Assembly (NCBI GenBank): GCA_009693905.1
Contig: SHWG01000002.1
Span: 1 to 41,116, forward strand
Direction: 5' to 3'
Source of the DNA: Rhodospirillales bacterium
GTDB taxonomy: Bacteria > Pseudomonadota > Alphaproteobacteria > Rhodospirillales > 2-12-FULL-67-15
Length of the DNA stretch: 41,116 bases
Shown here: positions 2,204 through 37,471 of the stretch, piece by piece
How the letters are laid out: each line of letters opens with the position of its first letter
Position numbering within the stretch: position 1 is the first letter of the stretch
Program-made: the position numbers and the translations under genes
Notes under the pieces: model-generated
The model's input: the letters and a program-made list of their open reading frames with translations, nothing else
Database searches by the model: none
What the model was told of the DNA's origin: nothing

Positions 2204-3381
2204 GGCTGGTCTCTTTCGGCGGCGGTCGCGGGGATGAGGGCGGCAACGGCGTCGGCCAGCGCGCGCGCCGCGTCGGGGCGGGCCAGGGTCCGGGCGAGGT
2301 TTGCGGCGCGGGCGAGCCCGCTTGGGTCGGCGAGCCGGCGGACCAGAAGCGAGGCTAGGTTTTCGGGCGTGAAGTCGGCTTCGGCGATCGTCCAGGCGGC
2401 GCCGATATCCGCGAGCGCGCGGGCGTTCGCGCTCTGGTGGTCGTCGGCGGCGTGCGCGTAAGGGACCAGGAAAGCGGGCCGGCCGAGGGCGGCGATTTCG
2501 GCCACCGTCGAGGCCCCGGCGCGGGCGATGACCAGTGCGGCCCGCGCCATGCGCTCCGGCGCGTCGGCGAAGAAGGGCGCGAGTTCCGCCGCGACGGCGA
2601 TGGCGGCGTAAGCCGCGCGGGTCCGTTCCAGATCCTCGGGCCGGCACTGTTGCGCGACGCGAAGATGCCGGCGCAAGTCCTCGGGCACCCGCGCGATGGC
2701 CGCGGGGACGACGTCGGCGAAAATCCGCGCCCCCTGGCTGCCGCCGAGGATCAGCAGCGCGACCGGATTTCCCGCCTCGGGAGCCCGGTAGGGTTGTCCC
2801 GCCAAGGCCGCCACTTGGGGACGCACCGGCATGCCGGTGCGCACGGCGCCGGCCGCCGTCGCCCGAGGCAACCCTTGGGTCGCGGCAAACGAGGTGGCAA
2901 CGCGGCCCACGCCGCGCGCGAGCAGGCGGTTGGCGCGGCCGAGCACGGCGTTTTGTTCGTGGATCGCGGTCGGGAGTCTTCTAAGCATCGCGGCGAGCAC
3001 GGTCGGAAACGAGGCGTACCCGCCGAAGCCGACCACGGCGCTGGGCCCGAGCCGGCCGAGCAGCGCGAACGCCTGGACCGTGCCGAGGCCGAGGCCGAAC
3101 ACGGCGCCCGCCCGCGCCCACGGGCTTTTGCCGGCAAGCGGGCCTCCGGCGATACGATGCGTGCCCATATCGCCGCCCGCGCGCGCAAGCGAATGTCCGC
3201 GCGCGTCCGTGACCAGGGCGAGCTTGAACCCGCGGCTTGAGAGTTCGGCGGCGAGCGCCTCGGCCGGGAATAGGTGGCCGCCGGTGCCCCCGGCCGCGAG
3301 AACGACGAGCCCGCCGGTCGTGCACTCGTCGTGCGAATGCACGCCTGCCGGCGTGACGCGCGCAAACCCTTGTGTCGTCAT
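2200..3381 (-). CDS. murG: Undecaprenyl-PP-MurNAc-pentapeptide GlcNAc transferase MurG
   Basis: [16 protein letters not shown] motif. ATG 3381 overlaps the ftsW stop (ATGA). The first ~20 codons are encoded by a palindromic mini-element (3326-3360). Confidence 0.92.
3326..3360 (-). repeat. Palindromic mini-element, 'HSHD' module, copy in the murG 5' codons
   Basis: TCGTCGTGCGAATGCACGCC-TGCC-GGCGTGACGCG (CACGCC/GGCGTG stem). Encodes [13 protein letters not shown]. Confidence 0.85.
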
Positions 3382-5975: not shown

Positions 5976-7064
5976 TCACCTGAGCTTGAGGGTGGCGAGC
6001 CCGGCCAGCGCCAGGATCGCGGCGATGATCCAGAAGCGGATGACGATGGTCGGCTCGGCCCAGCCCTTCTTTTCGAAATGATGATGCAGCGGCGCCATGC
6101 GGAAGACCCGCTTGCCGGTCAACTTGAAAGACACGACCTGGACGATGACCGAGACGGTCTCGAGCACGAACAGGCCGCCGACCACCGCCAGCACCAATTC
6201 ATGCTTGGTCACGACCGCGACGGTGCCGAGCGCGCCGCCGAGCGCGAGCGCGCCGGTATCGCCCATGAACACCCGCGCCGGCGGTGCGTTGAACCACAGG
6301 AATCCGAGCCCGGCGCCGATCAGGGCGCCGCAAAAGACCGCGAGCTCGCCGGCGCCGGGGACATAGTGGAGCTGGAGATAGTTGGCGAACACCGTATTGC
6401 CGACCAGATAGGCGACGAGCGCGAACACCCCGGTGGCGATCATCACCGGAACGATGGCCAGCCCATCGAGGCCGTCGGTCAGATTGACGGCGTTGGAGGT
6501 GCCGACGACGACGAGGACGGCGAAGACGACGAAAAATCCGCCGAGCTTGAGCAATACCGTCTTGAGGAACGGCACCGCCACCGCGGTCGCCAGCGCCGGC
6601 GGCGCGATCGAAACGATCCACAGCACCGCCACCGTGGCGATGGCGATTTCGAACAGGAACTTGATTCGCGCCGAAAGGCCGCGGCTGTGCTTTTGCACCA
6701 CCTTGATGTAGTCGTCGATGAACCCGATCAGGCCGAACGCGGCGGTCACGCCCAGCGTGGCCCAGACGTAGCGGTTGCGCAAATCCGCCCACAGCAGCGT
6801 CGCCGACACCATCGCGATCAGGATCAAGAGCCCGCCCATGGTCGGCGTCCCTTTTTTGGTCAACGGGTGGGTCTCGGGACCGTCGTCGCGGATCGGCTGT
6901 CCGTCGGCTTGCTGCTGGCGCAGCATCCGGATCATCGCCGGCCCGATCAGAAAACTGATCGCGAGCGCGGTGATGACCGCGCCGCCGGTCCGGAACGTGA
7001 GGTAGCGGAAGACGTTGATCACGCCGAACTGGTCGCTGAGCGGAACGAGAATGTGATAGAGCAT
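5976..7064 (-). CDS. mraY: Phospho-N-acetylmuramoyl-pentapeptide transferase MraY
   Basis: 362 aa polytopic membrane protein with [19 protein letters not shown] and PLHHHFE motifs. Confidence 0.96.
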
Positions 7065-7075
7065 GGAAGGTCCCC

Positions 7076-8605
7076 TCAGGCGCCGTTGTTCGCGGGCGGT
7101 ACGAGCAGAGCCTGGACGATCGTGCCGGTCCGGCTTCCGGCCGATCCCTTGACCAGCACGACATCGCCCGGACGCAAGGCCGCGACCACCACCGGCGCGA
7201 GGCTCGCGGCGCTTTCGGCGTGGCCGCCCCGCATCGCCGGCGGCAGCGACTTCGCGAGCATGGCCATGTGCGGGCCGGTGGTAAAGACAAGATCGAAGCG
7301 GGCCTCACGCAGCGGGCCGCTCAAGGCGGCGTGGTGCGCGGCGCTTTCGCCCCCGAGCTCCAGCATGTCGCCGAGCACGGCAATCCGGCGCCCGCCCGGC
7401 CCCGGCGCGACCGCGCCCGCGGCGGCCAGCGCCGCGGCCATCGAGGCGGGCGAGGCGTTGTAGCTCTCGTCGATCAGGAGAAACGCGCCGGCGCCGATGG
7501 CGACGCGATGACGCTCGCCGCGGCCCTTCATCGCCGGCACGTCGGCCAAGCCGGCGGCGGCGGCGGCCACGTCGGCGCCCAGCGCGTACACGGCGGCGAG
7601 CACGGCGAGGCTGTTCGCCACCCAATGCCGGCCGGCGAGGCCGAGCCGGTATGCGATCCGCCGGCCCGCGACCTCGGCTTCCACGTTCGAGCCGTCGGCG
7701 TGAAGCTCGAAGTTGCGCGCCCGGACGGTGACCTCGGGCCGATCCACCGCGCCGAAGGTGACGATGCGCTCTACCCCCGCGGCGCGGGCGGAAGCGACGA
7801 GCCGGGCGTAATAGGGGTTTTCGGCGGGCAGCACCGCCGCGCCGCCGGTCTCGACGCCGAAAAAGATTTCGGCCTTGGCGTCGGCGATCGCCTCCAGGCT
7901 GGGAAAGAACTCGATGTGCACCGGCGCGATCGCGGTCACGACCGCGACGTTCGGCCGGACCATCTTGACCAGCGGCGTGATCTCGCCCGCGTGGTTCATG
8001 CCGATTTCGAACACGCCGAAAGCGGCGTCGCTGGGCATCCGCGCCAGGCTCAAGGGCACGCCCCATTGGTTGTTGAAACTGCCGACGCTCGCCGTCGTCG
8101 AGCCTTGGCGGGAGAGAACATGGCGGAGCGCCTCCTTGACCCCGGTCTTGCCGACGCTGCCGGTGACGGCGACGACGCGCGCGTCGGCACGGGCCCGCGC
8201 GGCGCGACCGAGACCCTCCAGCGCAACTTGGGTGTCGGCGACGCGAACCAGGGCGGCATCGGGGCCCAATCCTTCGGGCACGCGCGCGGGCTTAACCCCG
8301 CGCGCATCGAATGTCGCGCCCCTACCGTGGCGGGCGACCACGGCCGCCGCCGCGCCGCGCTTGAAGGCATCGGCGACGAAGGCGTGGCCGTCGAGCCTGG
8401 GGCCTTTGAGGGCGACGAATAAATCGCCCGCCTGGATCGTGCGCGTGTCGATCGAGACGCCGCTTGCCTGCCAGTCAACGGAACCCACGTCGCCCCCGGT
8501 GGCGAGTGCGACTTCGGCCGCGGTCCAGAGAATGGGGCGCCGCGCGGGCGAATCCCCGCGCGCATTGAATGACGCGCCCCTGCCGGGGCGCCTGGGCGCG
8601 ATCAT
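7076..8605 (-). CDS. murF: UDP-MurNAc-tripeptide--D-Ala-D-Ala ligase MurF, carrying two in-frame repeat insertions
   Basis: [13 protein letters not shown]-loop. 509 aa, longer than usual. ATG 8605 overlaps the murE stop (ATGA). Inserts encode [17 protein letters not shown] (N-terminus) and [17 protein letters not shown] (internal). Confidence 0.93.
8283..8330 (-). repeat. Palindromic mini-element, 'GRGA' module, internal to murF
   Basis: The reverse complement CCACGGTAGGGGCGCGACATTCGATGCGCGCGGGGTTAAGCCCGCGCG matches the cofC copy at 42/48 positions (hand alignment). Encodes [16 protein letters not shown]. Confidence 0.9.
8541..8590 (-). repeat. Palindromic mini-element, 'GRGA' module, murF 5' codons
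   Basis: The reverse complement CCCCGGCAGGGGCGCGTCATTCAATGCGCGCGGGGATTCGCCCGCGCG matches the cofC copy at ~41/48. The CGCGCGGG/CCCGCGCG stem is kept while the loop differs. Encodes [16 protein letters not shown]. Confidence 0.9.
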
Positions 8606-10083
8606 GGTTTGGCCTCGCCGAGCGCCGCGCGGGCCTCGGCCGCGTCGTCGAAAGGGAGGGCATCCGTCCCGACGATCTGAACCCGCTCGTGCCCCCTGCC
8701 CGCCAGGACCAGAACGTCGCCCGCCTTCAAGCGCGCGACGGCGGCGCGGATGGCCTCGCGCCGGTCGGCGATTTCAACAGCGCCGGGACAAGCGGCAAGA
8801 ATCGCGCGGCGGATGGCGACGGGGTCTTCGCCGCGCGGGTTGTCGTCGGTGACGATCGTGGCGTCGGCGAAGTGGGCGGCGATGCGGCCCATCTCGGCGC
8901 GCTTGCCGGGATCGCGCTCGCCACCGCAGCCGAATACGAGGGAAAGTTTTCTCCGCGCGTGCGGGCGCAACGCGCCGAGCACGTGGACGAGGGCATCGGG
9001 GGTGTGGGCGTAGTCGACATAGACGGCGGCGCCGGTTTTCGTTTCGCCCGCTTTCTCCAGACGGCCGGGGACGCTGCCGAGGTGTTCGAGCGCGGCCACC
9101 GCCGCCCGCGCATCGGCGCCGCAAGCAATTGCCAAGCCCAGCGCGCAAAGCGCGTTCTCCGCCTGGAACAGGCCTACGAGGGGAAATTCGACCGCGCGCC
9201 GGGCCCCGAACAGAGAGAGATCGAGTTTCCGCCCGCCCGGCGTCGCTTGGTCAAAGCGCAGCGCGATATCGGTATCGTCCTCGCCGTAGGTGATGACCTT
9301 CAAGCGCCGCGCGCGGCAGGCATCGAGGATCGTATCGGCGCCGGGGGCGTCGAGGTGAATGACGGCCGTGGCGCCTTCGGGCAAAAGCTCGGCGAACAGG
9401 CGGCGCTTGGCGACGAGATAGGCGGCCATGTCGCGGTGATAATCGAGATGATCGCGGGTGAGGTTGGTGAACGCCGCGGCTTTCAACCGCACCCCGTCGA
9501 GGCGATATTGGTCGAGGCCGTGGCTCGAGGCTTCGAGCGCGAGATGCTCGATGCCGGTCTCGGCAAGCTCCTTAAGTGTCTGGTGCAGCTCCGCCGGATC
9601 GGGGGTGGTCAGCCCGCCCGCGCGCAGCGTCTCTCCTTGAGAGCCGACGATACCGAGGGTGCCGATACCGGCCGCGCGAAGCCCGAGGCTCGTCCAGATC
9701 TGGCGCAGGAAGTGGACCGTCGAGGTCTTGCCGTTGGTGCCGGTGACGGCGGCCACGGTTGCCGGCTGGCGGGCGAAAAAGCGCGCCGCCAGCAGGGCGT
9801 AGGCGCGGCGGGGATTGGCGGCGGAAAGAAAAACGGCCTTGGTTTCCGGCGCCAGCGGCTTGCTTTCCGCCGGCCCGAGCACCGCGACCGCGCCCCGGGC
9901 CAGCGCATCGGCGATGAATGCGCGCCCGTCGGTCTTGGTTCCGGCGAGCGCGGCGAACAGAAATCCGGGCGCCATGGCGCGCGAATCGGCTCCGATTCCG
10001 GCAATCTCGAGTTCGGGAGGGATCGCAACCGCGTTCACCTCGGTCAGTCCTTTCACAAGATCAATGAGACGCAACGCCGCCAC
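8602..10083 (-). CDS. murE: UDP-MurNAc-L-Ala-D-Glu--2,6-diaminopimelate ligase MurE
   Basis: VTGTNGKTST P-loop; TDDNPRGEDP (DNPR) motif. A GTG start at 10083 overlaps the ftsI 3' end by 23 nt; a TTG at 10074 is an alternative. Confidence 0.93.
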   Translation of the reverse strand: MAALRLIDLVKGLTEVNAVAIPPELEIAGIGADSRAMAPGFLFAALAGTKTDGRAFIADALARGAVAVLGPAESKPLAPETKAVFLSAANPRRAYALLAARFFARQPATVAAVTGTNGKTSTVHFLRQIWTSLGLRAAGIGTLGIVGSQGETLRAGGLTTPDPAELHQTLKELAETGIEHLALEASSHGLDQYRLDGVRLKAAAFTNLTRDHLDYHRDMAAYLVAKRRLFAELLPEGATAVIHLDAPGADTILDACRARRLKVITYGEDDTDIALRFDQATPGGRKLDLSLFGARRAVEFPLVGLFQAENALCALGLAIACGADARAAVAALEHLGSVPGRLEKAGETKTGAAVYVDYAHTPDALVHVLGALRPHARRKLSLVFGCGGERDPGKRAEMGRIAAHFADATIVTDDNPRGEDPVAIRRAILAACPGAVEIADRREAIRAAVARLKAGDVLVLAGRGHERVQIVGTDALPFDDAAEARAALGEAKP

Positions 10084-11941
10084 CTACGCCCACGATGGCC
10101 GCGGCCACACTTTCGATCGGGCGCGGGCGCGCGGGAGAATCGTCATGCGAATGCATGCCTGACGGCATGACGTGCGAAGGCGCGCCTAACGGCGTGACGC
10201 GCGCGCTGTCTGTCGCGCCCCTACCGGGGCGCGGTGCCGGCATCGGCGGATTCTCGATGGCGTCGTCGGGCGCGAGGCCGACGAGCGGCCCGAGCCGCTC
10301 GACGATGCGGCGCACCACGGGCGCGGCGATCCAGCCGCCGGTGGCGAGGCCGTGGGTCGAGGCGTTGCCCTTGGGTTCGTCGATCATGGCGAGCACGACG
10401 AAGCGGGGCTCGTGGATCGGGAACGCGCCGACAAAAGACGCTATGCGCGCGTCCCGGCGATAAACGCGACCCATCTGCTTGTCGGCGGTGCCGGTTTTGC
10501 CTCCGACCGTGTAGCCCTTGGCGTCGGCGTTCTTGCCGGTGCCGTGGACGACGGCGAGGCGCATGAGCTCGCGCATGGCGCGCGAGGTTTCGGCGCCGAT
10601 CGCGGCGGTGCCTTCGGGCACATGGCCGGGTTCGCGCTTCAAGATCGTGGCCGGGCGAAGCTGGCCGCCGTTGACGATCGCGGCGACGCCGGCGGCGAGT
10701 TGCAACGGGCTGACGGCGAGGCCGTGACCGTAGGCAATGGTCATGGTGTTGATCTCGCGCCAGCGCGCGGGCGCGAGCGGCGCGCCGGTTTCGGGCAGTT
10801 CGACCGGTGGGACCTTGAGCATCCCGAAGCCGTCGAGATATTCCCGCTGCAACCGCGTGCCGACATCGAGCGCCATCTTCGCCGCGCCGATATTGGAGGA
10901 AAAGGCCAGGATTTCGGGCACCGACAACCAGCGGTTCTTGCCCTTGTAGTCGGTGATGGTGAAACGGGCGATCTGGATCGGGCGGCTGGCGTCGTAGCCG
11001 TCGCGCAAGCCCACCGTTCCGGAATCGAGCGCCATGGCGACGGTGAACAGCTTGAAGGTCGAGGCCATTTCGTAGACGCCCTTGGTGACGCGGTTGAACG
11101 CGGATTCGGTTCCGGCGACGGCGGAAGAGTCGTTGGCGTCGAAGTCGGGCAACGAAACCATCGCCAGCACCTCGAAGGTCTGGACGTCGAACACGACCCC
11201 GGCGGCGCCGATGGCGCGGAACTCCTTCATCTGGAGGGCGAGCTCCTCGCGCAGGATATCCTGGATGCGAACGTCGAGCGAAAGCGCGAGCGCGCCTGAG
11301 CCTTCGGCGAGGCGGGCGTCGAACATCCGTTCCACTCCGGCGATGCCGCGCCCGTCCACGTCGGTGAGGCCGAGCACGTGCGCCGCCGCGCGTCCCTGCG
11401 GATAGACGCGGCGCTCGGCAACCTGGAACTCGAGGCCGGGAATGCCGAGGCGGTTGGCTTCGTACTTCTGGCGCGGGGTCAAATTGCGCTTGATCCAGAC
11501 GAAGCGGGCGCGGGAAGCGAGCTTGGCCTCGATCTGCTCCCGGTCGAGATCGGGAAACACCAGGGCGAGCTTGGCGGCGGCCTCGGCCGCGTCCAGAACC
11601 TCGCGCGGGTTGGCGTAAAGCGAAACGACCGGCAGGCTGGTGGCCAGCAGCACGCCGTTGCGATCGACGATCTCGGCGCGCGCGGTCGCCGCGTGGGGAG
11701 GCGTCGAGCGGGCGATGCGCGGCTCGCCGCCCTTGAGGACGGCGACGTCAACCAGGCGCACGGCGACGGCGACGAAAGCGAAGGCGATCACCGCGCCCGC
11801 CACCAAAAGACGATTGCGGCCGGTTTCGAGGGCCTGCAAGCCCTGGCCCTCGAAGGCAAAGGTCCGGCTGGCGGCCGCGGCAATAATGCCGGGGACAGGC
11901 GTTTCGTTTCCTCGGTTCCTAAACCACGCACGGCGGATCAC
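10061..11941 (-). CDS. ftsI: Division transpeptidase FtsI (PBP3), C-terminal tail encoded by a repeat
   Basis: ASTFK, SSN and KTGT penicillin-binding motifs, with an N-terminal TM helix. Start chosen at GTG 11941, which forms a GTGA overlap with the ftsL stop. The track's longer ORF (to 12106) would overlap ftsL by 168 nt. Confidence 0.88.
   Translation of the reverse strand: MIRRAWFRNRGNETPVPGIIAAAASRTFAFEGQGLQALETGRNRLLVAGAVIAFAFVAVAVRLVDVAVLKGGEPRIARSTPPHAATARAEIVDRNGVLLATSLPVVSLYANPREVLDAAEAAAKLALVFPDLDREQIEAKLASRARFVWIKRNLTPRQKYEANRLGIPGLEFQVAERRVYPQGRAAAHVLGLTDVDGRGIAGVERMFDARLAEGSGALALSLDVRIQDILREELALQMKEFRAIGAAGVVFDVQTFEVLAMVSLPDFDANDSSAVAGTESAFNRVTKGVYEMASTFKLFTVAMALDSGTVGLRDGYDASRPIQIARFTITDYKGKNRWLSVPEILAFSSNIGAAKMALDVGTRLQREYLDGFGMLKVPPVELPETGAPLAPARWREINTMTIAYGHGLAVSPLQLAAGVAAIVNGGQLRPATILKREPGHVPEGTAAIGAETSRAMRELMRLAVVHGTGKNADAKGYTVGGKTGTADKQMGRVYRRDARIASFVGAFPIHEPRFVVLAMIDEPKGNASTHGLATGGWIAAPVVRRIVERLGPLVGLAPDDAIENPPMPAPRPGRGATDSARVTPLGAPSHVMPSGMHSHDDSPARPRPIESVAAAIVGVGGGVASH
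10140..10231 (-). repeat. Composite mini-element (GRGA head plus duplicated HSHD module) forming the ftsI 3' tail
   Basis: TCGTCATGCGAATGCATGCCTGACGGCATGACGTGCGAAGGCGCGCCTAACGGCGTGACGCG followed by ...GTCGCGCCCCTACCGGGGCG. Encodes PGRGATDSARVTPLGAPSHVMPSGMHSHDDS. Confidence 0.85.
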
Positions 11942-12288
11942 GGCTTTTCCTCCTCGGGCGCAAGGCGTGATTGTGCGCTCGGCGCGCGCAAGTCCGCCGT
12001 GGGCAACGCCGGCAGCGTTCCGAACTGGGCGCCGGTGGCGGACGTCATGCCGAGGTGGCGCCCGGCGAGATCGCGCAGGCGCGCGGGTTCGTTGAGATAG
12101 CTCCATTCCGCCCGCAGCACGTGGATCGCCTGCTGGTCGCGGGCGATGCCGCGGTTGATTTCGGTCAGCCGGCCTTCATGCTCGACCACGCGATGCTTGA
12201 CGACGTAGAGACCGAGGCTGAGCGCGCCGGCGAGCGCGACCGAGAGCGCGGTCGCGGCGCCGCGGAGCGCGATTCCGTGCCGCCTCAT
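11938..12288 (-). CDS. ftsL: Cell-division protein FtsL (small bitopic protein)
   Basis: Internal ATG 12288 (ATGA overlap with the rsmH stop). 116 aa, one TM helix (ALSVALAGALSLGLYVV). Canonical position between rsmH and ftsI. Confidence 0.8.
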   Translation of the reverse strand: MRRHGIALRGAATALSVALAGALSLGLYVVKHRVVEHEGRLTEINRGIARDQQAIHVLRAEWSYLNEPARLRDLAGRHLGMTSATGAQFGTLPALPTADLRAPSAQSRLAPEEEKP

Positions 12289-13349
12289 GCCGCTCTCCGT
12301 CGGCGGGCTTGCGCGCGTCGCGCCGGAAGGCGCGCCATCAAATAATGCCGGCTTCGCCGGTGGGCGCACGACTTCGCGTCGTTCCACGGGGGCGCATCGG
12401 TGCGTTCGGCCGCGCGCAAGCGGGCCGAACGCGCGCGCGGATTGGCGGCGACCTCGGCCTCCGACGGACGCTGGATCCCGGCCATGAGCCTGAAGGTCGG
12501 CGGGCGCGCGGGCCCCTGGGGAACCGGGCTGTGGCGCGACGGCCCCGGAACGCGCCCGGAGCGTTCGGCAAGAAACGTCTTTACGATCCGGTCTTCGAGG
12601 GAATGGAAGGAAACGACGGCCAACCGTCCGCCCGCCTTGAGCAGGGTTTCGGCGGCGGCGAGGCCGCGCTCGATCTCGCCCAACTCGTCGTTGACGTAAA
12701 CGCGCAGCGCCTGAAACGTGCGGGTCGCCGGGTCGATGCCGTCGCGCGCGCGCGGCACGACCCGGCGCACGATCTCGGCCAATTCAAAGGTACGCTTAAG
12801 CGGCGCCACGGCGCGCGCCGCGACGATGGCCCGCGCGATGCGTCCGGCCAGGCGTTCCTCGCCGAAGCGGCGAATGATGTCGGCGAGTTCCGCCTCGGGC
12901 AGGCGGTTGACGGCATCGGCGGCGGTGGCTTGGGTGGAATCGGCGGCGTTCATGCGCATATCGAGCGGTCCGTCGGCGCGAAACGAAAATCCCCGCTCCG
13001 GATCGTCGAGGTGCCGCGACGAAACGCCGAGATCGAAGGCGATGCCGTCCACACGCTTCACGCCTACGCCGGTTAAAAGGCCGACCATGCCGCCGAAGCG
13101 ACCGGAGACGAGGGTGAGGCGGCCTTTGAACCGGCGGGCGAGCGGCGCACCCGCGGCCAAGGCTTCGGGATCGCGATCGATGCCGAAAATCTTTGTCCGC
13201 GACCGGGCTTCGAGGAGCGCGGTGGCGTAACCGCCGCCGCCGAAGGTCGCATCGACGTAGATCGCGCCGGCCTTGGGCGCGAGTCCCGCAAGCACTTCGG
13301 CAAGCATCACCGGGACGTGGCGGGGCGGGGCGGAGCTGGGCGCGGTCAT
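12285..13349 (-). CDS. rsmH: 16S rRNA (cytosine1402-N4)-methyltransferase RsmH/MraW
   Basis: HVPVMLAEVL, DATFGGGGY and DLGVSS motifs. Start at ATG 13349 preferred over ATG 13430 (a 27-aa non-homologous extension); the start is uncertain. Confidence 0.9.
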   Translation of the reverse strand: MTAPSSAPPRHVPVMLAEVLAGLAPKAGAIYVDATFGGGGYATALLEARSRTKIFGIDRDPEALAAGAPLARRFKGRLTLVSGRFGGMVGLLTGVGVKRVDGIAFDLGVSSRHLDDPERGFSFRADGPLDMRMNAADSTQATAADAVNRLPEAELADIIRRFGEERLAGRIARAIVAARAVAPLKRTFELAEIVRRVVPRARDGIDPATRTFQALRVYVNDELGEIERGLAAAETLLKAGGRLAVVSFHSLEDRIVKTFLAERSGRVPGPSRHSPVPQGPARPPTFRLMAGIQRPSEAEVAANPRARSARLRAAERTDAPPWNDAKSCAHRRSRHYLMARLPARRAQARRRRAA

Positions 13350-13548: not shown

Positions 13549-13595
13549 GACGATCGGGGGGGTATTTTTGAACCCCGGCACTAGTTCGAATAAAT

Positions 13596-13990
<395 letters not shown>

Positions 13991-20031: not shown

Positions 20032-20219
20032 GCGATCATACGGCACACCTCCCCCTCACCCTCCCCTCTCCCCCCGCAAGTGGCGGGGGGAGAGGGTTGC
20101 CCCGCCGGCTTTGCCGGCAACCGTTTTTCGCGCGCGAAGAGCGCGCGAGGGGGGTTGGCGCGGCGCTCGGGCCGCGCCTTACCCGGAGCTGGGTGAGGGG
20201 GGCGATGCCAATCGATCGC
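20032..20219 (+). repeat. Mosaic BIME/MITE-like intergenic repeat, copy A (livK-livH spacer)
   Basis: Terminal inverted CCCCCTCACCC (20051-61) and GGGTGAGGGGG (20191-201), with imperfect outer arms GCGATC...GATCGC. Internal hairpin cassettes: CTCTCCCCCCGC-loop-GCGGGGGGAGAG, GCCGGC-TTT-GCCGGC, CGCGCG-AAGAG-CGCGCG, GGCGCGGC-loop-GCCGCGCC. Confidence 0.85.
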
Positions 20220-22625: not shown

Positions 22626-23437
22626 GGCGCACGGGCTTCCGCGATGGCGCGCTTGAGCGCGACGTGATGGATGCGGATTTGGTAGGCGTCGTCGCCCAAA
22701 GGCGTGCCCGCGAATAGGGCGGAGACCCAGGCCTCGCCCGGGTCCCGCTCGGCGATCTTGGCGTCGTCGACGACGATCGGGGGGCCCGAGACCGCGCCGA
22801 TCACCGCGCGCGCGAATTTGCGCGCCGGGTCGATCAGAACCACCCCGGTGGCGTGCGAGAACTCGCCCGCCTTGCGGCATATTTTTGCGTAGCCCCAGCG
22901 CGCGTTCGCCGACAGCGCCGGAATCCGGATTTCAACGACCAGTTCGCCGGGCCCAAGCGCGGTCTCGAACGTACCCCGGATAAAGTCCTTGGCCGGCACG
23001 GTTCGCCGCCCGCCCGTTCTCGCGACGACCACGTCGGCGCCGAGGGCGGCCAAAACCGAGACCCAGTCGGCGGCGGGATCGGCGTGCGCCAAGCTCCCGC
23101 CGACGGTGCCGCGGTTGCGGACCGCGCGATAGGCGATCCCGGCGGCCACCCGCGCGAGCACGCCCCGGGTGGGATCGGGAGTGCCGCCGTCCTCCAGCGC
23201 CGCGTGGGTGACGCAGGCGCCGAGGACGAGAAAACCTTTTTCTTCGCGGATCGACGCCAACTCGGGGATCGCGGTGATGTCGACCAAGAGTTCCGGCTGG
23301 ACCAGGCGCAAATTCAGCATCGGCCCGAGCGACTGGGAGCCGGCGAGCGGCTTGGCGTTCAAGTCCTCGCGCCCGAGCAATTTGAGCGCCGCATCGAGGG
23401 TCGCCGGCCGCTCGTAATCGAAATCGACCGGTTTCAC
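22622..23437 (-). CDS. FAD-binding medium subunit (CoxM-like)
   Basis: 271 aa with AGSQSLGPMLNLR and a CO-dehydrogenase flavoprotein C-terminal domain. The GTG start forms a GTGA overlap with the large-subunit stop. Confidence 0.88.
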   Translation of the reverse strand: MKPVDFDYERPATLDAALKLLGREDLNAKPLAGSQSLGPMLNLRLVQPELLVDITAIPELASIREEKGFLVLGACVTHAALEDGGTPDPTRGVLARVAAGIAYRAVRNRGTVGGSLAHADPAADWVSVLAALGADVVVARTGGRRTVPAKDFIRGTFETALGPGELVVEIRIPALSANARWGYAKICRKAGEFSHATGVVLIDPARKFARAVIGAVSGPPIVVDDAKIAERDPGEAWVSALFAGTPLGDDAYQIRIHHVALKRAIAEARAP

Positions 23438-25863
23438 GGTTTATTCCCCGCCGCGAGCGAATCGTCGTGCGAATGCACGCCGAGCGGCGTGACGCGGCGA
23501 CCGTTTGTTGGCCCGCCTACCGGCGGGACGGCCGCGGCGATCGCCGCGAACACGCGCTTGGGCGACATCGGCGTATCGGTGAGCGTGGCGCCGAGCGGCT
23601 TCAGCGCGTCGTTGATCGCGTTGCAGATCGCCGCCGGCGGCGCGATGGCGCCGCCCTCGCCGATGCCTTTCTGGCCGAACTCGGTCAAGGGCGACGGCGT
23701 GGTCATGTGCACGATTCGGATCGGCGGAATCTCGGGGAATCCGGGCACCAGATAGTCGGCGAAGGTGGAGGCGAGCGGCTGGCCCTCGGCATCGAAGGGC
23801 ACCTCTTCGTACAGCGCCGTTCCGATTCCTTGCGCGATGCCGCCCAGAACCTGCCCTTCCACCACCATCGGGTTGAGCATGACGCCGGCATCCTCGACCA
23901 CCACGTAATCGAGAATCTCGACCGCGCCGGTTTCCGTGTCCACCGCCACGACCACGGCGTGACTGGCGTACGAAAACGTGCCCTGGTCCGACTTCGGCTT
24001 GTAGCCGGCGGTGACGTCGAGGCCGCCCGGGTCCACGTCCGACGGCAGAAGCTGCGGCGCCCGGTACCAGACCCGCGCGATCTCGGCCAACGGCACGTGG
24101 CCCAAGCCGGCGCGCACAAAGCCGTTCTCGAATTTGGCGTCTCCCGGTTTTGCCTGGAGGAGATGGGCGCCGATCTTCGTCGCGCGCTCGACCAGAACCT
24201 TGCACGCCGCCGCGACCGCGCCGCCCCCCATGACCGCCGCGCGCGAGCCCCAGGTGCCGGTCGAGAACGGCGTCAACCCCGTATCGCCGTGCACCACCTT
24301 GATCTTGGAAATATCGACGCCGAGAACCTGGTGCGCGACCTGGGCCAGCGTCGTTTCCATGCTCTGGCCGTGGGATTGCAGGCCGACGCGGATCTCGATC
24401 CCGCCGTCGGGAGTGATGCGCGCCTGGGCCAGCTCGTGTCCGGGCACCATGGGAATGCCCCAGCCGTGATAGACGGCGGTGCCGTGCCCGGCCTGTTCGC
24501 AGTAGATCGCCAAGCCAAGCCCGATCCGGCGCCCGTCCGCCTCGCCTTTCTTTTGGCGCTTGCGGATGCCGGCGAGGTCGATGGCGGCGACGGCCCGGCG
24601 CATCGATTCGGGGTAATCGCCGCTGTCGAAATGCTTTTTGGTGACGTTGACGAACGGCATCTTCTCGGGCGGAACGAGATTGAGAAGCCGGACCTCGTGC
24701 GGCTCGCGCCCGACCGCACCCGCGATCGCGTCCATGATCTGCTCGATGGCGAAGCAGACGCCGGTGCGCGCGACCCCGCGATAAGGCACGATCGGCGGCT
24801 TGTTGGTGCACACCGAAACGGCGTGGCAGCGATAATGAGCGAAGTCGTAGGGCCCGGGCAGGATGCTGCCGACTTGGCCCACCTCGAGGCAGGCCGAGAA
24901 GGGATAGGCCGAATAGGCGCCGGCATCGACGAGGACCCGGGCGTCGAGCCCGAGCAGGCGGCCCGTTGCGTCGGCGTAAGCGGTAATGTCGTAGCGGTGC
25001 TCGCGGGCGTTCGCCGCCGCGACCAGGTGCTCGCGCCGGTCCTCGGTCCAGCGCACCGGATGGTCGAGCGCCCGGGCGAGCCAGGCGGCGATCACCTCCT
25101 CGGCCTGCAACAGCCCCTTCCAGCCGAAGCCGCCGCCGACGTCGGGCGCGATCACCCGGATCAAACCCTGATCGACGCCGAGACACTCGGCCAGACCCTG
25201 GCGGACGATGTGCGGCATCTGGGTCGAGGTATGAACCGTGAGTTGTTCCGCTTGACGCTCCCACACCGCGACCACGCCCTTGCCTTCCAGGGGCACCATG
25301 CACTGGCGGGCCATGCGGATCTGGCGCGAAACCTTGATCGGCGCGCTGGCCGCGATTGTCTCGATGTCGCCCACGACCGTATCGGCTTCGAGAAAGAGGT
25401 TGTCGCTCCAATGATCGTGAATTTTGGACTTGGGCGCGCGCGCGGATTCGAGCGTGTCGGCATTGACCGGCAATTCCTCGAAGTCGATCTCCACCAGGGC
25501 GGCGATATCCTCGGCTTCGGCGCGGGTGCGCCCGACGCAGGCCGCGACCGGCTCGCCGACGAAGCGGACCTTGCCGTCGGCCAACGGCGGCTGGTCGGAA
25601 ATCTTGAATCCGGGAAGGCCCGAGACGGCGCGGATCGGCTTGACGCCCCCCTTGGCCAAGTCGGCCCAGGTAAAGACCGCGCCTTGGTGTTCGGGCGGAA
25701 CACGGATCGCGCGGATGCGGGCGTGCGCGAGCGGGCTCCGAACCAAGGCGATATCCTTCATCCCGACCAGCGCGATGTCGCCCGTGAAGCGGCCGCGCCC
25801 CTTGAGCAGGCGCTCGTCCTCGCGCCTGCGGACCGCCGCGCCCACGCCCATGCCCTCGGCCAT
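23434..25863 (-). CDS. Molybdopterin-binding large subunit (CoxL-like, not the CO-dehydrogenase signature)
   Basis: ATG 25863 is preceded by GGAGGAGG. 809 aa aldehyde oxidase/xanthine dehydrogenase fold. The active-site loop reads VPYRGVART, not AYXCSFR (form I) or AYRGAGR (form II). The C-terminal tail (RRVTPLGVHSHDDS) is repeat-encoded. Confidence 0.88.
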   Translation of the reverse strand: MAEGMGVGAAVRRREDERLLKGRGRFTGDIALVGMKDIALVRSPLAHARIRAIRVPPEHQGAVFTWADLAKGGVKPIRAVSGLPGFKISDQPPLADGKVRFVGEPVAACVGRTRAEAEDIAALVEIDFEELPVNADTLESARAPKSKIHDHWSDNLFLEADTVVGDIETIAASAPIKVSRQIRMARQCMVPLEGKGVVAVWERQAEQLTVHTSTQMPHIVRQGLAECLGVDQGLIRVIAPDVGGGFGWKGLLQAEEVIAAWLARALDHPVRWTEDRREHLVAAANAREHRYDITAYADATGRLLGLDARVLVDAGAYSAYPFSACLEVGQVGSILPGPYDFAHYRCHAVSVCTNKPPIVPYRGVARTGVCFAIEQIMDAIAGAVGREPHEVRLLNLVPPEKMPFVNVTKKHFDSGDYPESMRRAVAAIDLAGIRKRQKKGEADGRRIGLGLAIYCEQAGHGTAVYHGWGIPMVPGHELAQARITPDGGIEIRVGLQSHGQSMETTLAQVAHQVLGVDISKIKVVHGDTGLTPFSTGTWGSRAAVMGGGAVAAACKVLVERATKIGAHLLQAKPGDAKFENGFVRAGLGHVPLAEIARVWYRAPQLLPSDVDPGGLDVTAGYKPKSDQGTFSYASHAVVVAVDTETGAVEILDYVVVEDAGVMLNPMVVEGQVLGGIAQGIGTALYEEVPFDAEGQPLASTFADYLVPGFPEIPPIRIVHMTTPSPLTEFGQKGIGEGGAIAPPAAICNAINDALKPLGATLTDTPMSPKRVFAAIAAAVPPVGGPTNGRRVTPLGVHSHDDSLAAGNKP
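23462..23527 (-). repeat. Palindromic mini-element, HSHD module plus degenerate head, coxL-like 3' tail
   Basis: TCGTCGTGCGAATGCACGCC-GAGC-GGCGTGACGCG is identical to the murG copy except for the loop, followed by ...GCCCGCCTACCGGCGGG. Encodes PPVGGPTNGRRVTPLGVHSHDDS. Confidence 0.85.
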
Positions 25864-26003
25864 TTCGCCTCCTCCCTGGCGGGAAGAAACAACTATTGCG
25901 CCGGGGTTTGATTTTATCAAGTCGTTATATTGATGCATTTTTATTGCCCTGTTTTCCTAATGTAGATATCATTCAAAAAACCCAGTTGGGAGAGCGCGTT
26001 TCC
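25864..26003. promoter_or_regulatory. AT-rich divergent control region between the hydroxylase operon and the PLP/CoA-transferase/LLM operon
   Basis: The only markedly AT-rich spacer in the block. Perfect palindrome TTGAT-TTT-ATCAA at 25908-25920. An extra TTGAT half-site at 25930-25934 overlaps an ATGCAT palindrome. Confidence 0.4.
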
Positions 26004-30394: not shown

Positions 30395-31216
30395 TTACCG
30401 CCCCACCCCCGCCCCCTTCAACAAATCCACATCGAGCCGGACGCAGTCGCCGCGATAGACCATATCGGCGACGTAGATCGCCAGCCCTGAGCGGTTGACG
30501 ATGGCGCAATGGACCTCGGCGGTCGGCGCGTTCAAGGGGACGCGCAGGTATTCGGCGACTTCCGGGTCGGCACCGCCGATGGTCACGGTGTTGTAGGCGT
30601 GGGCGATCCGGGCGCGCTCATGGTGGACGAGAACCGGCAACGCGGTGTGGGCGAGAAATTCCTCCGGCGCGCGGTCGTAGACGGCGCGGTCGATGTGCAC
30701 CGAGACGACCGCGAACGGCACGCCATCGCGGTACTGGACGCTGCGCAGATACCGGTAGCCGGCGGGCGAATGGCGGCCGTCGCCCGGGCCCAGGCGCGGC
30801 AGCGGCGGCGGGCTCGCGACCGTCACGAACTTTGGCACGTTGACGGCGACGATGCTTGCGAGCGAGTCGAGATCGTTGGCGAGCCGGAGCCAGCGCCGCT
30901 CCGGCACCGCGCGGGCGACGAAGGTGCCCTTGCCCTGCTGGCTCCACACCAGCCCTTCCTTCACCAGGAGATCGACCGCCTGGCGCACGGTCACCCGCGC
31001 CACCTGAAACTCGCGCTCCAATCCTTCGAGGGTCGGGAGTTTTTGCCCAGGGCCAAAGGCCCCGTCCTCGATCCGGCGGCGAAGCAGGCCGGCGAGCTGG
31101 ATGTAAAGGGGAACGCGGCTGCGTCCGAAGGCGCGGGCGAGAGAGGCATTTTTCGTCCGCTTACGCGCATTATTCGATGCGCCCCTATCGGGGCGACGGC
31201 GCTTGGCGGGGATCAT
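30395..31216 (-). CDS. GntR-family transcriptional regulator (HutC/UTRA-like effector domain probable)
   Basis: Internal ATG 31216 (ATGA overlap with the pxpC stop). PLYIQLAGLLRRRIEDG...LPTLEGLEREFQVARVTVRQAVDLLVKEGL is a winged HTH. The N-terminal codons RPDRGASNNARKR are repeat-encoded. Confidence 0.85.
   Translation of the reverse strand: MIPAKRRRPDRGASNNARKRTKNASLARAFGRSRVPLYIQLAGLLRRRIEDGAFGPGQKLPTLEGLEREFQVARVTVRQAVDLLVKEGLVWSQQGKGTFVARAVPERRWLRLANDLDSLASIVAVNVPKFVTVASPPPLPRLGPGDGRHSPAGYRYLRSVQYRDGVPFAVVSVHIDRAVYDRAPEEFLAHTALPVLVHHERARIAHAYNTVTIGGADPEVAEYLRVPLNAPTAEVHCAIVNRSGLAIYVADMVYRGDCVRLDVDLLKGAGVGR
31164..31195 (-). repeat. Palindromic mini-element, GRGA module (short), gntR 5' codons
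   Basis: CGCGCATTATTCGATGCGCCCCTATCGGGGCG; compare CGCGCATTGAATGACGCGCCCCTGCCGGGGCG at 8559-8590. Encodes PDRGASNNARK. Confidence 0.75.
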
Positions 31217-34578: not shown

Positions 34579-34781
34579 GATCGAATGGAATCATCCCCCC
34601 TCACCCGTCAGAACCGCTTTGCGGTTCGACCGGGTAAGGCGCGGCCCGAGCGCCGCGCCAACCCCCCTCGCGCGCTCTTCGCGCGCGAAAAACGGTTGCC
34701 GGCAAAGCCGGCGGGGCAACCCTCTCCCCCCGCGAGTAGCGGGGGGAGAGGGAAGGGTGAGGGGGGTGGTGCCATTCGATC
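34579..34781 (-). repeat. Mosaic BIME/MITE-like repeat, copy B (npdG-cofE spacer), inverted relative to A and C
   Basis: Outer inverted arms GATCGAATGG (34579-88) and CCATTCGATC (34772-81). 34631-34733 is a 103-nt perfect match to the reverse complement of copy A. Carries an extra hairpin cassette GTCAGAACCGC-TTT-GCGGTTCGAC. Confidence 0.9.
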
Positions 34782-34806: not shown

Positions 34807-35568
34807 GTGCCCGCCGTCACCCTGATCCCGGTTCCCGGCCTGCCGCTGGTCCGGGCCAACGACGATCTTTCCCAACTGATCGCCGCCGCGCTGGAGCGCG
34901 AAGGACTCGGCCTCGAAGACGGCGACATCGTCGCGGCAGCCCAGAAGATCGTCTCCAAGGCGGAAGGGCGGCAGGTCGCGCTCGCCACCGTCGCGCCCGG
35001 ACCCCGCGCCCGCGAAATCGCCAAGACCGTGGGCAAGGACCCGCGCCTGGTCGAATTGATTCTTTCCGAATCGCGGGCGGTGGTGCGAACCGCCCCCAAC
35101 GTCCTGATCGTCGAGCACCGGTTGGGGTTCGTGATGGCCAACGGGGGCGTCGATCAATCGAACGTCGACGCCAAAGGCGGCGAGGCGGCGCTGCTGCTGC
35201 CCCTCGACCCGGACGGGTCGGCGGCGCGCCTGAAAGTATCGCTCGAAGTGCGTTATGCCTGCCGGCTCGGCGTCGTCGTCACCGACAGCTTCGGCCGGCC
35301 GTGGCGGAACGGGGTCGTGGGCGTTTGTCTCGGCGCCGCCGGAATCCCAGCGCTCCGCGACCGGCGCGGGTCGCCCGACTTGTTCGGCCGGGCCTTGCGC
35401 GTGACCGAGATCGCGATGGGCGACGAGATCGCCGCCGCCGCGTCGCTTTTGATGGGCGCGGCCGACGAGGGGATTCCGGTCGTGATCGTGCGCGGGTTCA
35501 AACTCGAAGGCCCGGACGCTCCCGCGGCGGCGTTGATCCGCGACCGCGCCCTCGATCTGTTCCGCTGA
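34807..35568 (+). CDS. cofE: Coenzyme F420-0:L-glutamate ligase CofE (stand-alone, no nitroreductase domain)
   Basis: 253 aa with KIVSKAEGR and ANGGVDQSN motifs. GTG start with GGGAGAG 6 nt upstream. Confidence 0.88.
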   Translation: MPAVTLIPVPGLPLVRANDDLSQLIAAALEREGLGLEDGDIVAAAQKIVSKAEGRQVALATVAPGPRAREIAKTVGKDPRLVELILSESRAVVRTAPNVLIVEHRLGFVMANGGVDQSNVDAKGGEAALLLPLDPDGSAARLKVSLEVRYACRLGVVVTDSFGRPWRNGVVGVCLGAAGIPALRDRRGSPDLFGRALRVTEIAMGDEIAAAASLLMGAADEGIPVVIVRGFKLEGPDAPAAALIRDRALDLFR

Positions 35569-35590
35569 GACGGCATCAACTTGACTGGAC

Positions 35591-35711: not shown

Positions 35712-35750
35712 AACGGTTCCGGTCGGTGCTAAAATATTCCGGACTGGCCC

Positions 35751-36719
35751 ATGAGCGAGTCTTCCGTTTTTCTTTCCGGCCACGTCGTTGTCCTATCGGG
35801 CGGGGTCGGCGGTGCGCGCATGGCGCGCGGGCTCGCGCGCGCGCTCGGCAATCCCGCCCGGCTTACGGTCGCGGTCAACACCGCCGACGATTTCGTTCAT
35901 CTCGGGTTCGCCGTCAGCCCCGATCTCGACACGGTGCTCTATACGCTCGCCGGGATCGAAAACCCGGTCGAGGGCTGGGGCCGCGCCGACGAAACCTGGT
36001 CGTTCATGGCGACGCTCGATCGGCTCGGCGGCGAAACCTGGTTCCAGCTCGGCGACAAGGACCTCGCGCTCCACGTGTTCCGCACCCAAGCCCTGGCCCA
36101 AGGCCGCACCCTTTCCGCCGTCACCGCCGAGCTTTGCCGGCGGTTCGATATCAGCGTCGAGATTCTGCCGATGACCGACGATCGCGTCACGACGGTGGTC
36201 GAGACCGAAGAAGGCCCGCTCGCTTTCCAGGATTATTTCGTTCGCCGGCGCTGCCAGCCCAAGATCAAGGGCTTCCGCTTCATCGGCTCCGACGACGCGA
36301 GGCCGTCCGCGCGCCTGATCGAGCGCCTCAAGGACACCGCCCTCGGCGCCGTCGTCCTCGGGCCGTCGAACCCGTTCGTCAGCATCGCCCCAATACTCGC
36401 CGTGCCGGGGGTGCGGGCGGCGCTCGAAGCCTGTCCGGCGCCGATCGTCGCCGTTTCCCCCCTGGTCGGGGGCGCCGCGGTCAAGGGCCCCGCCGCCAAG
36501 ATGATCGCCGAGTTGGGCCAAACCCCCTCGGTCGGCTGGGTCGCCGAACACTACGCCGGGCTCATTGACGGGATCGTGGTCGACGAGGCCGACCGGGCGG
36601 CGGCGGGAGCGATCCGGGGCCCCCGCGTCCGGGTCGCGAAAACGGTGATGCGGAGCGACGCCGATCGCGCCACACTGGCCGCCGAGGTTCTCGGCTTCGC
36701 CCTGGAGATCGGTTCATGA
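35751..36719 (+). CDS. cofD: 2-phospho-L-lactate transferase CofD/FbiA
   Basis: 322 aa with VVVLSGGVGGARMARGL, plus typical CofD motifs. Confidence 0.9.
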   Translation: MSESSVFLSGHVVVLSGGVGGARMARGLARALGNPARLTVAVNTADDFVHLGFAVSPDLDTVLYTLAGIENPVEGWGRADETWSFMATLDRLGGETWFQLGDKDLALHVFRTQALAQGRTLSAVTAELCRRFDISVEILPMTDDRVTTVVETEEGPLAFQDYFVRRRCQPKIKGFRFIGSDDARPSARLIERLKDTALGAVVLGPSNPFVSIAPILAVPGVRAALEACPAPIVAVSPLVGGAAVKGPAAKMIAELGQTPSVGWVAEHYAGLIDGIVVDEADRAAAGAIRGPRVRVAKTVMRSDADRATLAAEVLGFALEIGS

Positions 36720-37471
36720 GCCGCGCGTTTCCCGTTTTCGCCCTGGTTCCGGTTCGCGCTTTTCCCGAAGGCAAAAAGCGGTTGGCGCCGCTCATGTCAC
36801 CCGAAGAAAGGGCCATGCTTGCGAAAACCATGCTCGAAGACGTGCTCGATTGTCTCGGCCGTTCGCCCGCCGTCGAGGGGATCGCGGTCGTGACCGACGA
36901 CGCGGACGCCGCCGCGCTCGCCCTCGACCATGGCGCGCGGGTGCTGCCCGATGCGCCGGAACCGAACGGCGGCCTCAACGCCAGCCTCGCCGGCGCCGCC
37001 GCCTGGCTTCGCGCGACGCACCCCGGCAGGGGTGCATCATTTGATGCGCGCGGGGTTAAGCCCGCGCGACCCGGACGGGCGACGCTCATTATCCATGCCG
37101 ACCTGCCCGCCGCGACCCCCGAAGACATCGCCGCGTTGGTCGCCGAAGACGCCGAAATCGTGCTCGCCCGCGCCCACGACGGCGGGACCAACGCGATGCT
37201 GCTCCGCCCCGGCGTTTCGCTCCCGTTCGCGTTCGGGCCTGAGAGTTGCGCCCGCCACCAGGCCGCCGCCCGCGCCGCCGGGCTTTCGGTCGCCGTCGTC
37301 GAGCGCCCCGGACTTTCCCTCGACCTCGACCGGCCGGAAGACGTCGCGGCGTACCTCGCCCGAGCCGGGAACTCGCGCACCCTTGGCCTGTTGCACCGGC
37401 AGGGCATCCCGGCCCGGCGGCGCGCATTAAATGATGCACCCCTACCGGCGCGCGCGAGGACGGATTCATGA
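36716..37471 (+). CDS. cofC: CofC/FbiD-type guanylyltransferase of F420 biosynthesis, with two repeat insertions
   Basis: ALVPVRAFPEGKKRLAPLMSPEERAMLAKTMLEDVL and IIHADLP motifs. 251 aa versus roughly 210-225 for characterised homologues (from memory). ATGA overlaps at both ends. Confidence 0.85.
   Translation: MSRAFPVFALVPVRAFPEGKKRLAPLMSPEERAMLAKTMLEDVLDCLGRSPAVEGIAVVTDDADAAALALDHGARVLPDAPEPNGGLNASLAGAAAWLRATHPGRGASFDARGVKPARPGRATLIIHADLPAATPEDIAALVAEDAEIVLARAHDGGTNAMLLRPGVSLPFAFGPESCARHQAAARAAGLSVAVVERPGLSLDLDRPEDVAAYLARAGNSRTLGLLHRQGIPARRRALNDAPLPARARTDS
37021..37068 (+). repeat. Palindromic mini-element, GRGA module, internal to cofC
   Basis: CCCCGGCAGGGGTGCATCATTTGATGCGCGCGGGGTTAAGCCCGCGCG, with sub-palindromes GCATCA-TT-TGATGC and CGCGCGGG-GTTAAG-CCCGCGCG. 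Encodes [16 protein letters not shown]. Confidence 0.9.
37421..37448 (-). repeat. Palindromic mini-element, GRGA module (short), opposite orientation, cofC 3' codons just 5' of the fbiC SD
   Basis: CGCGCATTAAATGATGCACCCCTACCGG is the reverse complement of the head of the 37021 copy. Read on the other strand it gives [12 protein letters not shown]. Confidence 0.85.

Follow-up and report, generated by a model that had tools for sequence, protein, structure and literature searches.

Why should a Mur ligase, a nucleotidyltransferase of F420 biosynthesis and a GntR-family regulator, encoded at separate places on one alphaproteobacterial contig, carry almost the same short peptide? The stretch analysed here (the window) comprises 41,116 nucleotides of contig SHWG01000002.1, positions 1 to 41,116, from the Rhodospirillales bacterium assembly GCA_009693905.1, and the peptide, GRGA(S/T)F(D/N)ARG, is the translation of a 48-nt palindromic unit. 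A sequence-only reading had described this unit as a selfish or structural DNA element that persists in a single tolerated frame. Our analysis indicates that the feature is very probably a short, non-coding, dispersed palindromic repeat, similar to repetitive extragenic palindromic (REP) sequences and Rickettsia palindromic elements (RPEs), and not a protein motif. By profile search, its host loci are the minus-strand dcw cluster (ftsI, murE, murF), the plus-strand F420 operon (cofE, cofD, cofC, cofGH) and the gene for a GntR-family regulator; MurF, CofC and the regulator had been correctly named as hosts.

A 48-nt unit with two covarying hairpins

The unit occurs six times in the window, with the consensus CCCCGGTAGGGGCGC-ATCATTTAAT-GCGCGCGGGGATTCGCCCGCGCG. 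The exact string ATGCGCGCGGGG-N5-CCCGCGCG has three matches (8283-8307 and 8541-8565 on the minus strand, 37044-37068 on the plus strand), and shuffled sequences are expected to give 0.01. A fuzzy search with the 31-nt core CCCCGGYAGGGGYGCRWCATTYRATGCGCGC, allowing at most five mismatches, returned six matches, at 8300-8330(-), 8558-8588(-), 10199-10229(-), 31163-31193(-), 37021-37051(+) and 37420-37450(-). The same six copies were recovered by a covariance model (R1) at 33-75 bits, together with a diverged relative in the rsmH C-terminal tail at 12316-12368(+) (22.6 bits, E=0.0015), which shares the layout of hairpin, AT-rich linker and hairpin but has different stems. The copies reported earlier lie where they had been placed; the sixth, at 10199, had been overlooked. 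Direct reading reproduced the identities of 42/48 and 41/48 between the murF copies and the cofC copy, as well as the preserved stem with its differing loop (GTTAAG versus GATTCG), and translation confirmed the peptides, including PDRGASNNARK.

The length of the unit is defined by its strict tandem period: locus L023 holds 5.1 head-to-tail units at 6750-6995, with a period of exactly 48 nt. At L032 (47-146), two head-to-tail units with the same period are read as 32 extra residues of RecG, just before MTATPIPRT. Across genomes and metagenomes, the consensus with its flanks is cgcg-CCCCGGTAGGGGCGCATCATTTAATGCGCGCGGGGATTCGCCCGCGCG-ccc. The unit has a GC content of about 75%, compared with 68% for the window, and consists of hairpin A (7-bp stem GCGCCCC/GGGGCGC, GGTA loop), a variable AT-rich linker of about 10 nt and hairpin B (9-bp stem GCGCGCGGG/CCCGCGCGC, GATTCG loop). 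When the consensus is folded as single-stranded DNA, these two hairpins form the minimum-energy fold (-24.7 kcal/mol, z = -4.2).

Among 22 distinct copies, 95.7% of cells are paired, and five pairs are altered on both sides, a count reached in 0 of 500 shuffles; slid controls were all lower. Compensatory changes include GCGGCGGG/CCGCCGC in L021 and A-T for G-C in L024 and L034; the cofC copy of the window has GCACCCC/GGGGTGC. Divergence reaches 21.8% in the linker versus 2.7-2.9% in the stems. In the frame that gives the peptide in MurF (f1), mismatches number 25, 26 and 25 at codon positions 1, 2 and 3, an evenness that is the reverse of the pattern that selection on a peptide would leave. 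The unit is a DNA-level repeat: it is translated in three reading frames, lies in both orientations and is also found at gene boundaries. The three frames, the two covarying stems and the even codon-position divergence bear out the earlier preference for a structured dispersed repeat over a protein motif. A search of Rfam found no family matching the element.

Another possible body for the repeat, a middle hairpin with GTAG followed by GCGCAT-loop-ATGCGC, would suit the layout of a classic REP, and was rejected as the main structure because it shows no covariation and is not the minimum-energy fold. Most copies contain the string GGTAGGGG. In hairpin A, GTAG overlaps the loop and the 3' arm; it would be a 5' tag solely for this covariation-free middle hairpin. 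As a separate observation, the stem variants CGCCCC, CACGCC, CATGCC and CCCGCC share the GGTA loop, which amounts to compensatory variation at the level of the family.

Insertions in cell-wall and F420 genes

All six window copies overlap called open reading frames (ORFs), and four are in-frame insertions in, or extensions of, MurF, CofC and FtsI. In murF (7076..8605, minus strand, 509 aa; NCBIfam PRK14093, 563 bits), a full unit at 8283..8330(-) supplies codons 93-108 (covariance model, 64 bits); compared with the empty sites of L013 and L014, it adds exactly 48 nt. Both internal murF insertions that were checked against empty-site DNA measure exactly 48 nt. The encoded block, residues 93-108, is present in the window protein only and is absent from 19 aligned orthologues, among them proteins 82-88% identical. 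No residues of E. coli MurF (1GG4) align with the block, which falls between ...LLVSR and PLDIDLPQLIVKDT, in agreement with the sequence-only reading.

A second full unit, at 8541..8588(-) (74.5 bits), occupies the murE-murF junction and encodes MurF residues 7-22. Its state varies among relatives: P0002 has it complete, P0003 and P0006 have truncated forms, P0008 has a degenerate one, and P0005, P0007 and P0010 lack it. At the DNA level it is shortened by 21 nt in L013 and L015, and P0003 carries an additional, independent copy at a different MurF site. No in-frame start codon separates the N-terminal unit from the LWT motif conserved in MurF; the predicted start is therefore most likely the ATG that overlaps the stop codon of murE (8602-10083, minus strand, profile search). 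A different hairpin family, CCCGCC-GGTA/TACC-GGCGGG, fills the murF N-terminal site in L017 (10020-10045) in place of the main unit, and also occurs in L012 (4201-4218).

The neighbouring cell-wall genes are affected as well. The C-terminal tail of ftsI (PBP3; 10061..12106, minus strand, 681 aa), beyond the Pfam Transpeptidase domain that ends at residue 602 of 681, contains a 102-nt (34-codon) composite of one main-type and two CGTC-type modules (10136..10237, minus strand; repeat family D1). DNA alignment with two relatives, the syntenic loci L015 and L017, identifies it as an exact 102-nt insertion that both lack; its translation is APRPGRGATDSARVTPLGAPSHVMPSGMHSHDDS. MurE of L015 has its own 17-residue in-frame insert (L015 8707-8765), which is absent from the window and from L017, in a locus whose MurF is 82% identical to that of the window. 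The N-terminal domains of Mur ligases seem to have been hit repeatedly. RsmH, with the diverged relative in its tail, has 354 aa in the window versus 335 and 338 aa in L015 and L017. In the GntR-family regulator, a partial, degenerate unit reduced to the 31-nt core (31163..31193, minus strand, fuzzy search) encodes PDRGASNNARK in an N-terminal extension; the helix-turn-helix profile match begins at about residue 32-34, and the protein has 273 aa versus 240 aa for the syntenic GntR protein in L037.

The cofC gene (36716..37471, plus strand, 251 aa; operon cofE-cofD-cofC-cofGH) carries a full unit at 37021..37068(+), approximately codons 103-118 (covariance model, 72.6 bits). The 16-residue block is again found in the window protein only and in none of 19 homologues, and it splits the CofC profile match (TIGR03552, 145 bits) into two stretches. 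A partial unit in the opposite orientation, at 37420..37450(-) (fuzzy search, translation), lies at the cofC 3' end and the cofC-cofGH junction, where the reverse-orientation copy replaces the C-terminus, which is unlike the ...LRAKAGAQP type and has 8 aa more. In P0138, P0139 and P0141, an independent insertion occupies another CofC site in the reverse frame; at the DNA level, the covariance model confirmed these insertions as copies on the minus strand of L037 and L038. Other lineage-specific CofC inserts, a 24-residue PGGAGRSTIGPGADLAAGSFVSGASA and a 12-residue block (P0132, P0134), do not resemble the 48-nt unit and may derive from other repeats.

Orthologue alignments of 20 sequences each thus support the suspicion that the 16-residue MurF and CofC blocks are lineage-specific indels. 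On this comparative evidence, we interpret the in-gene copies in MurF, CofC and FtsI as genuine, recent and recurrent in-frame insertions. Within one clade, Mur ligases have been hit at at least four independent sites, and CofC at two internal sites in addition to its 3' tail.

Reading frames and tolerance by the host proteins

The consensus is stop-free in three of six frames, two forward and one reverse; the other three hold TAG, TAA or TGA. All three open frames are used in real genes, so the proposal that only one reading frame is tolerated does not hold. Frame f1 is used in MurF, CofC, FtsI, MurE, an MGMT-type methyltransferase and PyrD; a glycosyltransferase and a TauD-like enzyme use frame f2; and the reverse frame is used in the CofC tail, the second CofC site of relatives, an epimerase, a YgfZ-like protein and RecG. 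Although f1 accounts for five of six window copies, a strong preference for it was rejected: with relatives included, the cases number approximately 9, 3 and 8 (f1, f2, reverse), which is not clearly unlike equal use. Nor does the unit appear designed to be stop-free, as we estimate that a 48-mer at about 70% GC has some 4.4 of six frames open by chance, compared with the three observed.

An AlphaFold2 model of MurF, built from 117 sequences, has a mean predicted local distance difference test score (pLDDT) of 92.6. Both inserts are modelled as low-confidence segments without secondary structure: residues 1-18 have pLDDT <50, and residues 91-110, between the strands at 87-91 and 119-122, have a pLDDT of about 66. 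Both positions are consistent with tolerance of the inserts. Gly, Arg, Ala, Pro and Ser are abundant in the encoded peptides. As predicted, the inserts would be harmless-looking loops of 16 residues.

Copies in other genomes and metagenomes

Exact-pattern scans yielded 11 genome loci and 19 metagenome contigs. The element was found by pattern scan in two further metagenome-assembled genomes (MAGs), Rhodospirillales bacterium RIFCSPLOWO2_12_FULL_67_15 and a Hyphomicrobiales genome, and by pattern scans and the covariance model combined in at least three other MAGs and several metagenomes. The same MurF protein is encoded on contig SHWI01000014.1 of MAG GCA_009691085.1. Elsewhere, the unit lies inside the domains of an MGMT DNA_binding_1 protein, an NAD-dependent Epimerase, a GT4 glycosyltransferase and a TauD-like enzyme. 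It is also found within PyrD, a YgfZ-like protein and, as two tandem units, RecG. About 20 independent in-ORF cases were counted across the loci, in a sample that is small and pattern-selected. The host range is a narrow clade of uncultured high-GC Alphaproteobacteria, in which the unit occurs alongside related CGTC-type modules; the bacterium of the window is an uncultured one of soil or groundwater.

Protein searches added little. In a word-indexed search with concatenated three-frame peptides, one candidate shared words and none scored. A profile search with six f1 peptides against 1.84 billion representative proteins gave 250 matches, of which only P0254 was clearly element-encoded; the set is clustered at 50% identity, which hides insertion variants and makes it uninformative as a census. 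The top profile matches, within P0173-P0322, were translated CRISPR arrays, with peptides such as FQFTHPGRGAT and VSIHAPREGCD. Hairpin A of the cofC copy (GCACCCC-GGCA-GGGGTGC) encodes HPGRGAT, as do translated CRISPR repeats (FQFTHPGRGAT); the identity of the stems is probably a coincidence between GC-rich hairpins.

How the repeat may spread, and rival explanations

Insertion sites have a recognizable flank. CGCG occupies positions -4 to -1 in 14-20 of 21 copies and CCC positions +1 to +3 in 15-17 of 21, such that the target, CGCG|CCC, resembles the junction of two tandem units. Inserts measure exactly 48 nt or, in composites, other multiples of three. Because 48 nt equals 16 codons and three of six frames are open, an insertion can keep the reading frame and add 16 residues. 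The unit and the CGTC-type modules form mosaics and head-to-tail arrays. We suggest that the element is non-autonomous and would be copied by an enzyme that recognizes its hairpins; our best guess, by analogy with REPs, is a tyrosine (HUH/Y1) transposase of the REP-associated tyrosine transposase (RAYT) or IS200-IS605 type, acting on single-stranded hairpin DNA. Surviving copies would be limited to tolerant places, namely protein termini at either end, operon junctions and surface loops. The peptide would be a passenger without a function of its own, and selection or repair would work on the DNA or RNA hairpins.

Two alternatives to a dispersed repeat are hardly credible. If GRGA(S/T)F(D/N)ARG were a selected binding or modification site, arising by convergence or domain shuffling, the single frame shared by five of six window copies would be explained; the same DNA, however, is translated in two other frames elsewhere, codon position 3 is conserved as well as positions 1 and 2, the block is missing from close orthologues and predicted to be disordered, and it is not covered by any Pfam or NCBIfam family. 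That the blocks are artefacts of assembly or binning is just as implausible. The source is indeed a MAG, yet MurF with both inserts is present on three contigs (NCBI, ENA and the window) and the CofC protein on five, analogous in-frame copies occur in independent ENA, JGI and NCBI samples, and insert lengths are exact multiples of three in otherwise collinear genes.

The remaining rivals accept a DNA repeat and concern its maintenance and its spread. The hairpins might serve the host in operons, as mRNA stabilizers, attenuators, RNase sites, sites for gyrase or nucleoid proteins, or elements of translational coupling, with translation as a side effect. Such roles have been proposed for REPs (PMC3733652), stems are maintained through compensatory changes, and many copies sit exactly at co-directional junctions of tight operons (rsmH tail, ftsI-murE, murE-murF, cofC-cofGH). 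We nevertheless consider this quite improbable, since presence varies at the same junctions among relatives 80-88% identical, copies also lie mid-enzyme in unrelated proteins and in either orientation, Rfam gave no match, and the needs of a mobilizing enzyme would explain the compensatory changes equally well. Spread without a dedicated transposase is a further, unlikely rival. It would proceed by template switching, gene conversion or microhomology-driven copy-paste from one CGCG-rich site to another, or else by recombination of a circular or tandem intermediate with targets that look like the junction. Targets that resemble the tandem junction, insertions of exactly 48 nt with no unambiguous target duplication, and the head-to-tail arrays would all fit this, and CGTC-type REPs are described in the literature without an associated transposase (PMC3733652). 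Against it, the high uniformity of copies across different MAGs fits recognition by an enzyme.

Several points weigh against a mobilized, REP-like repeat as we describe it. No transposase or RAYT gene was noticed among the annotated genes of the window and of the 8-20-kb loci, and no whole-genome search was aimed at one. Because target and element ends are both CGCG-rich, the boundaries of an insertion can shift by as much as about 7 nt, and a short target duplication cannot be told apart from targeted insertion without duplication. With only 11 genome and 19 metagenome loci matching the exact pattern, the copy number of a genome is an extrapolation, and translation of the inserts is deduced from uninterrupted ORFs. 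In hairpin A, GTAG sits in the loop and the 3' arm, whereas in defined GTAG REPs it marks the foot of a stem; and the operon hairpins may have a host role. A bolder version of the REP-like reading is that the family is a currently active, coding-tolerant mobile element with an undescribed mode of integration, repeatedly remodelling the loops of essential enzymes. Exact 48-nt insertion at mimics of the tandem junction CGCG|CCC, head-to-tail arrays, the lack of inverted dimers and GTAG in the loop would fit such activity, which we nonetheless regard as doubtful.

Related modules and other features of the window

CGTC-type modules, CGTCACGCC-GGYA-GGCGTGC-ATTC-GCACGACG, lie at 3316-3358, 10130-10199 and 23452-23494. 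The first (3316..3358, minus strand; CGTCACGCC-GGCA-GGCGTGC-ATTC-GCACGACG, repeat family D1) is translated at the MurG N-terminus, and the last (23452..23494, minus strand, repeat search) lies at the 3' end of ORF 23434-25938(-). It is followed by a CCCGCC-TACC-GGCGGG hairpin at 23511-23528.

The window includes a complete F420 biosynthesis operon (34807-39855; cofE, cofD, cofC and fused cofGH, the last at 37468-39855 on the plus strand by profile search) in an alphaproteobacterial MAG, and at the syntenic locus L037 an F420-dependent-type oxidoreductase gene lies upstream of this operon. A second repeat of about 110-175 bp occurs at 20051-20203, 34595-34767 (inverted) and 35591-35700, two copies being 97% identical over 136 nt. 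It ends in the terminal inverted repeats CCCCCCTCACCC...GGGTGAGGGGGG, contains an internal hairpin, CCCTCTCCCCCCGC-loop-GCGGGGGGAGAGGG, and has the appearance of a MITE (miniature inverted-repeat transposable element) within the intergenic spaces flanking cofE. RNase P RNA of bacterial class A (13595-13987, minus strand, 302 bits) adjoins the dcw cluster.

Implications

The window offers a clean natural case of selfish palindromic DNA translated in essential genes (murF twice, ftsI, murG, rsmH, cofC), with empty-site alleles in close relatives. For annotation, such repeats matter in that ORFs become longer, the predicted positions of starts and stops move, and profile matches are split. Independent insertions recurring in MurE, MurF and CofC provide ready pairs for studying the effects of 16-residue loops on enzymes and the target rule. 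If the element were active, it would act as a natural system for insertional scanning, and it might drive protein evolution as opposed to being neutral baggage.

Comparison with known repeat families

MITEs have terminal inverted repeats of 15-30 bp, a length of 70-300 bp and a fixed target-site duplication. The unit was rejected as a MITE because its two ends, each a hairpin of a different kind, are not inverted copies of one another, it measures 48 nt and its flanking direct repeat is ambiguous; a CRISPR array was rejected because copies are dispersed or directly head to tail, with no spacers. Mycobacterial interspersed repetitive units (MIRUs; Supply et al. 1997) are reportedly about 40-100 bp long, and are said to lie between operon genes of a high-GC genome, to form tandem arrays, and to have open frames overlapping the stop and start codons of their neighbours; they are reportedly described as intergenic and not as two-hairpin palindromes. 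By description only, the unit differs from MIRUs in being a two-hairpin palindrome inserted within enzyme domains. The bacterial interspersed mosaic elements (BIMEs) of enterobacteria resemble the three-module ftsI-murE cluster as mosaics of REP-type modules in tandem at operon junctions. BIMEs, however, lie outside genes and are built from inverted REPs and defined linker motifs, whereas the modules here are head to tail and translated.

RPEs are in-frame insertions of about 100-150 bp in Rickettsia genes (Ogata et al. 2000 and 2002, as summarized in PMC10969869 and PMC3733652), and those of R. conorii end in CGTC (PMC3733652). Like the unit, they are palindromic repeats that are lineage-specific, lie in frame in unrelated housekeeping genes of Alphaproteobacteria and are predicted to be compatible with the protein fold. 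The resemblance claimed in the sequence-only reading is accurate as regards in-frame insertion into unrelated functional ORFs; the size is not that of RPEs, at 48 nt in a host of 68% GC. By description, RPE hosts are AT-rich, obligately intracellular Rickettsia, whereas the genome in which the unit resides is of the free-living type and has an F420 operon and a full dcw cluster.

The closest parallels are REPs found inside genes. In many free-living bacteria, ORFs of known proteins contain GTAG- and CGTC-tagged REPs, about 70 such ORFs being reported in Opitutus terrae (Di Nocera, De Gregorio, Rocco 2013, PMC3733652). Some genes are hit twice and N- and C-termini are frequent sites; examples come from Opitutus terrae (GTAG-17/18/19), Thauera and S. 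maltophilia (PMC3733652). This catalogue predates the implied claim of a first sighting of RPE-like behaviour in a free-living genome of high GC content. Like the 48-nt unit, intragenic REPs are short GC-rich stem-loops that occur as singles, dimers or clusters, often at ORF ends, with a fraction lying wholly within ORFs, adding about 7-50 residues and sometimes occurring twice per gene (PMC3733652). GTAG and CGTC types coexist in Alphaproteobacteria, where the latter are common (PMC3733652), and the companion modules of family D1 are stem-loop repeats ending in CGTC, as the definition of CGTC-tagged REPs requires. The RecG, MGMT-type methyltransferase and epimerase hit here echo the list of DNA-repair genes in PMC3733652.

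In the broad sense of the term, the unit is a REP, namely a short, GC-rich, imperfect palindrome with stem-loops at many loci. It departs from REPs in location: nearly every sampled copy overlaps an ORF, and the mainly extragenic distribution is not seen in this small, pattern-selected sample. Unlike intragenic REPs, it is a fixed 48-nt pair of two different hairpins with an AT-rich linker. The GTAG-tagged class is defined by a conserved GTAG at one terminus or foot of the stem-loop (Nunvar 2010; Di Nocera 2013, PMC3733652), whereas the GTAG of the unit lies within hairpin A; a further mark of that class is a RAYT (Y1 transposase) gene with the repeats on its flanks, known as a REPtron; and the unit forms strict 48-nt head-to-tail arrays, whereas head-to-tail dimers are rare in REP families (PMC3733652). 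Its consensus does not appear in the text of PMC3733652. The concept itself goes back to the studies of Rickettsia RPEs and to the REP survey of 2013, and this family is a further example of it.

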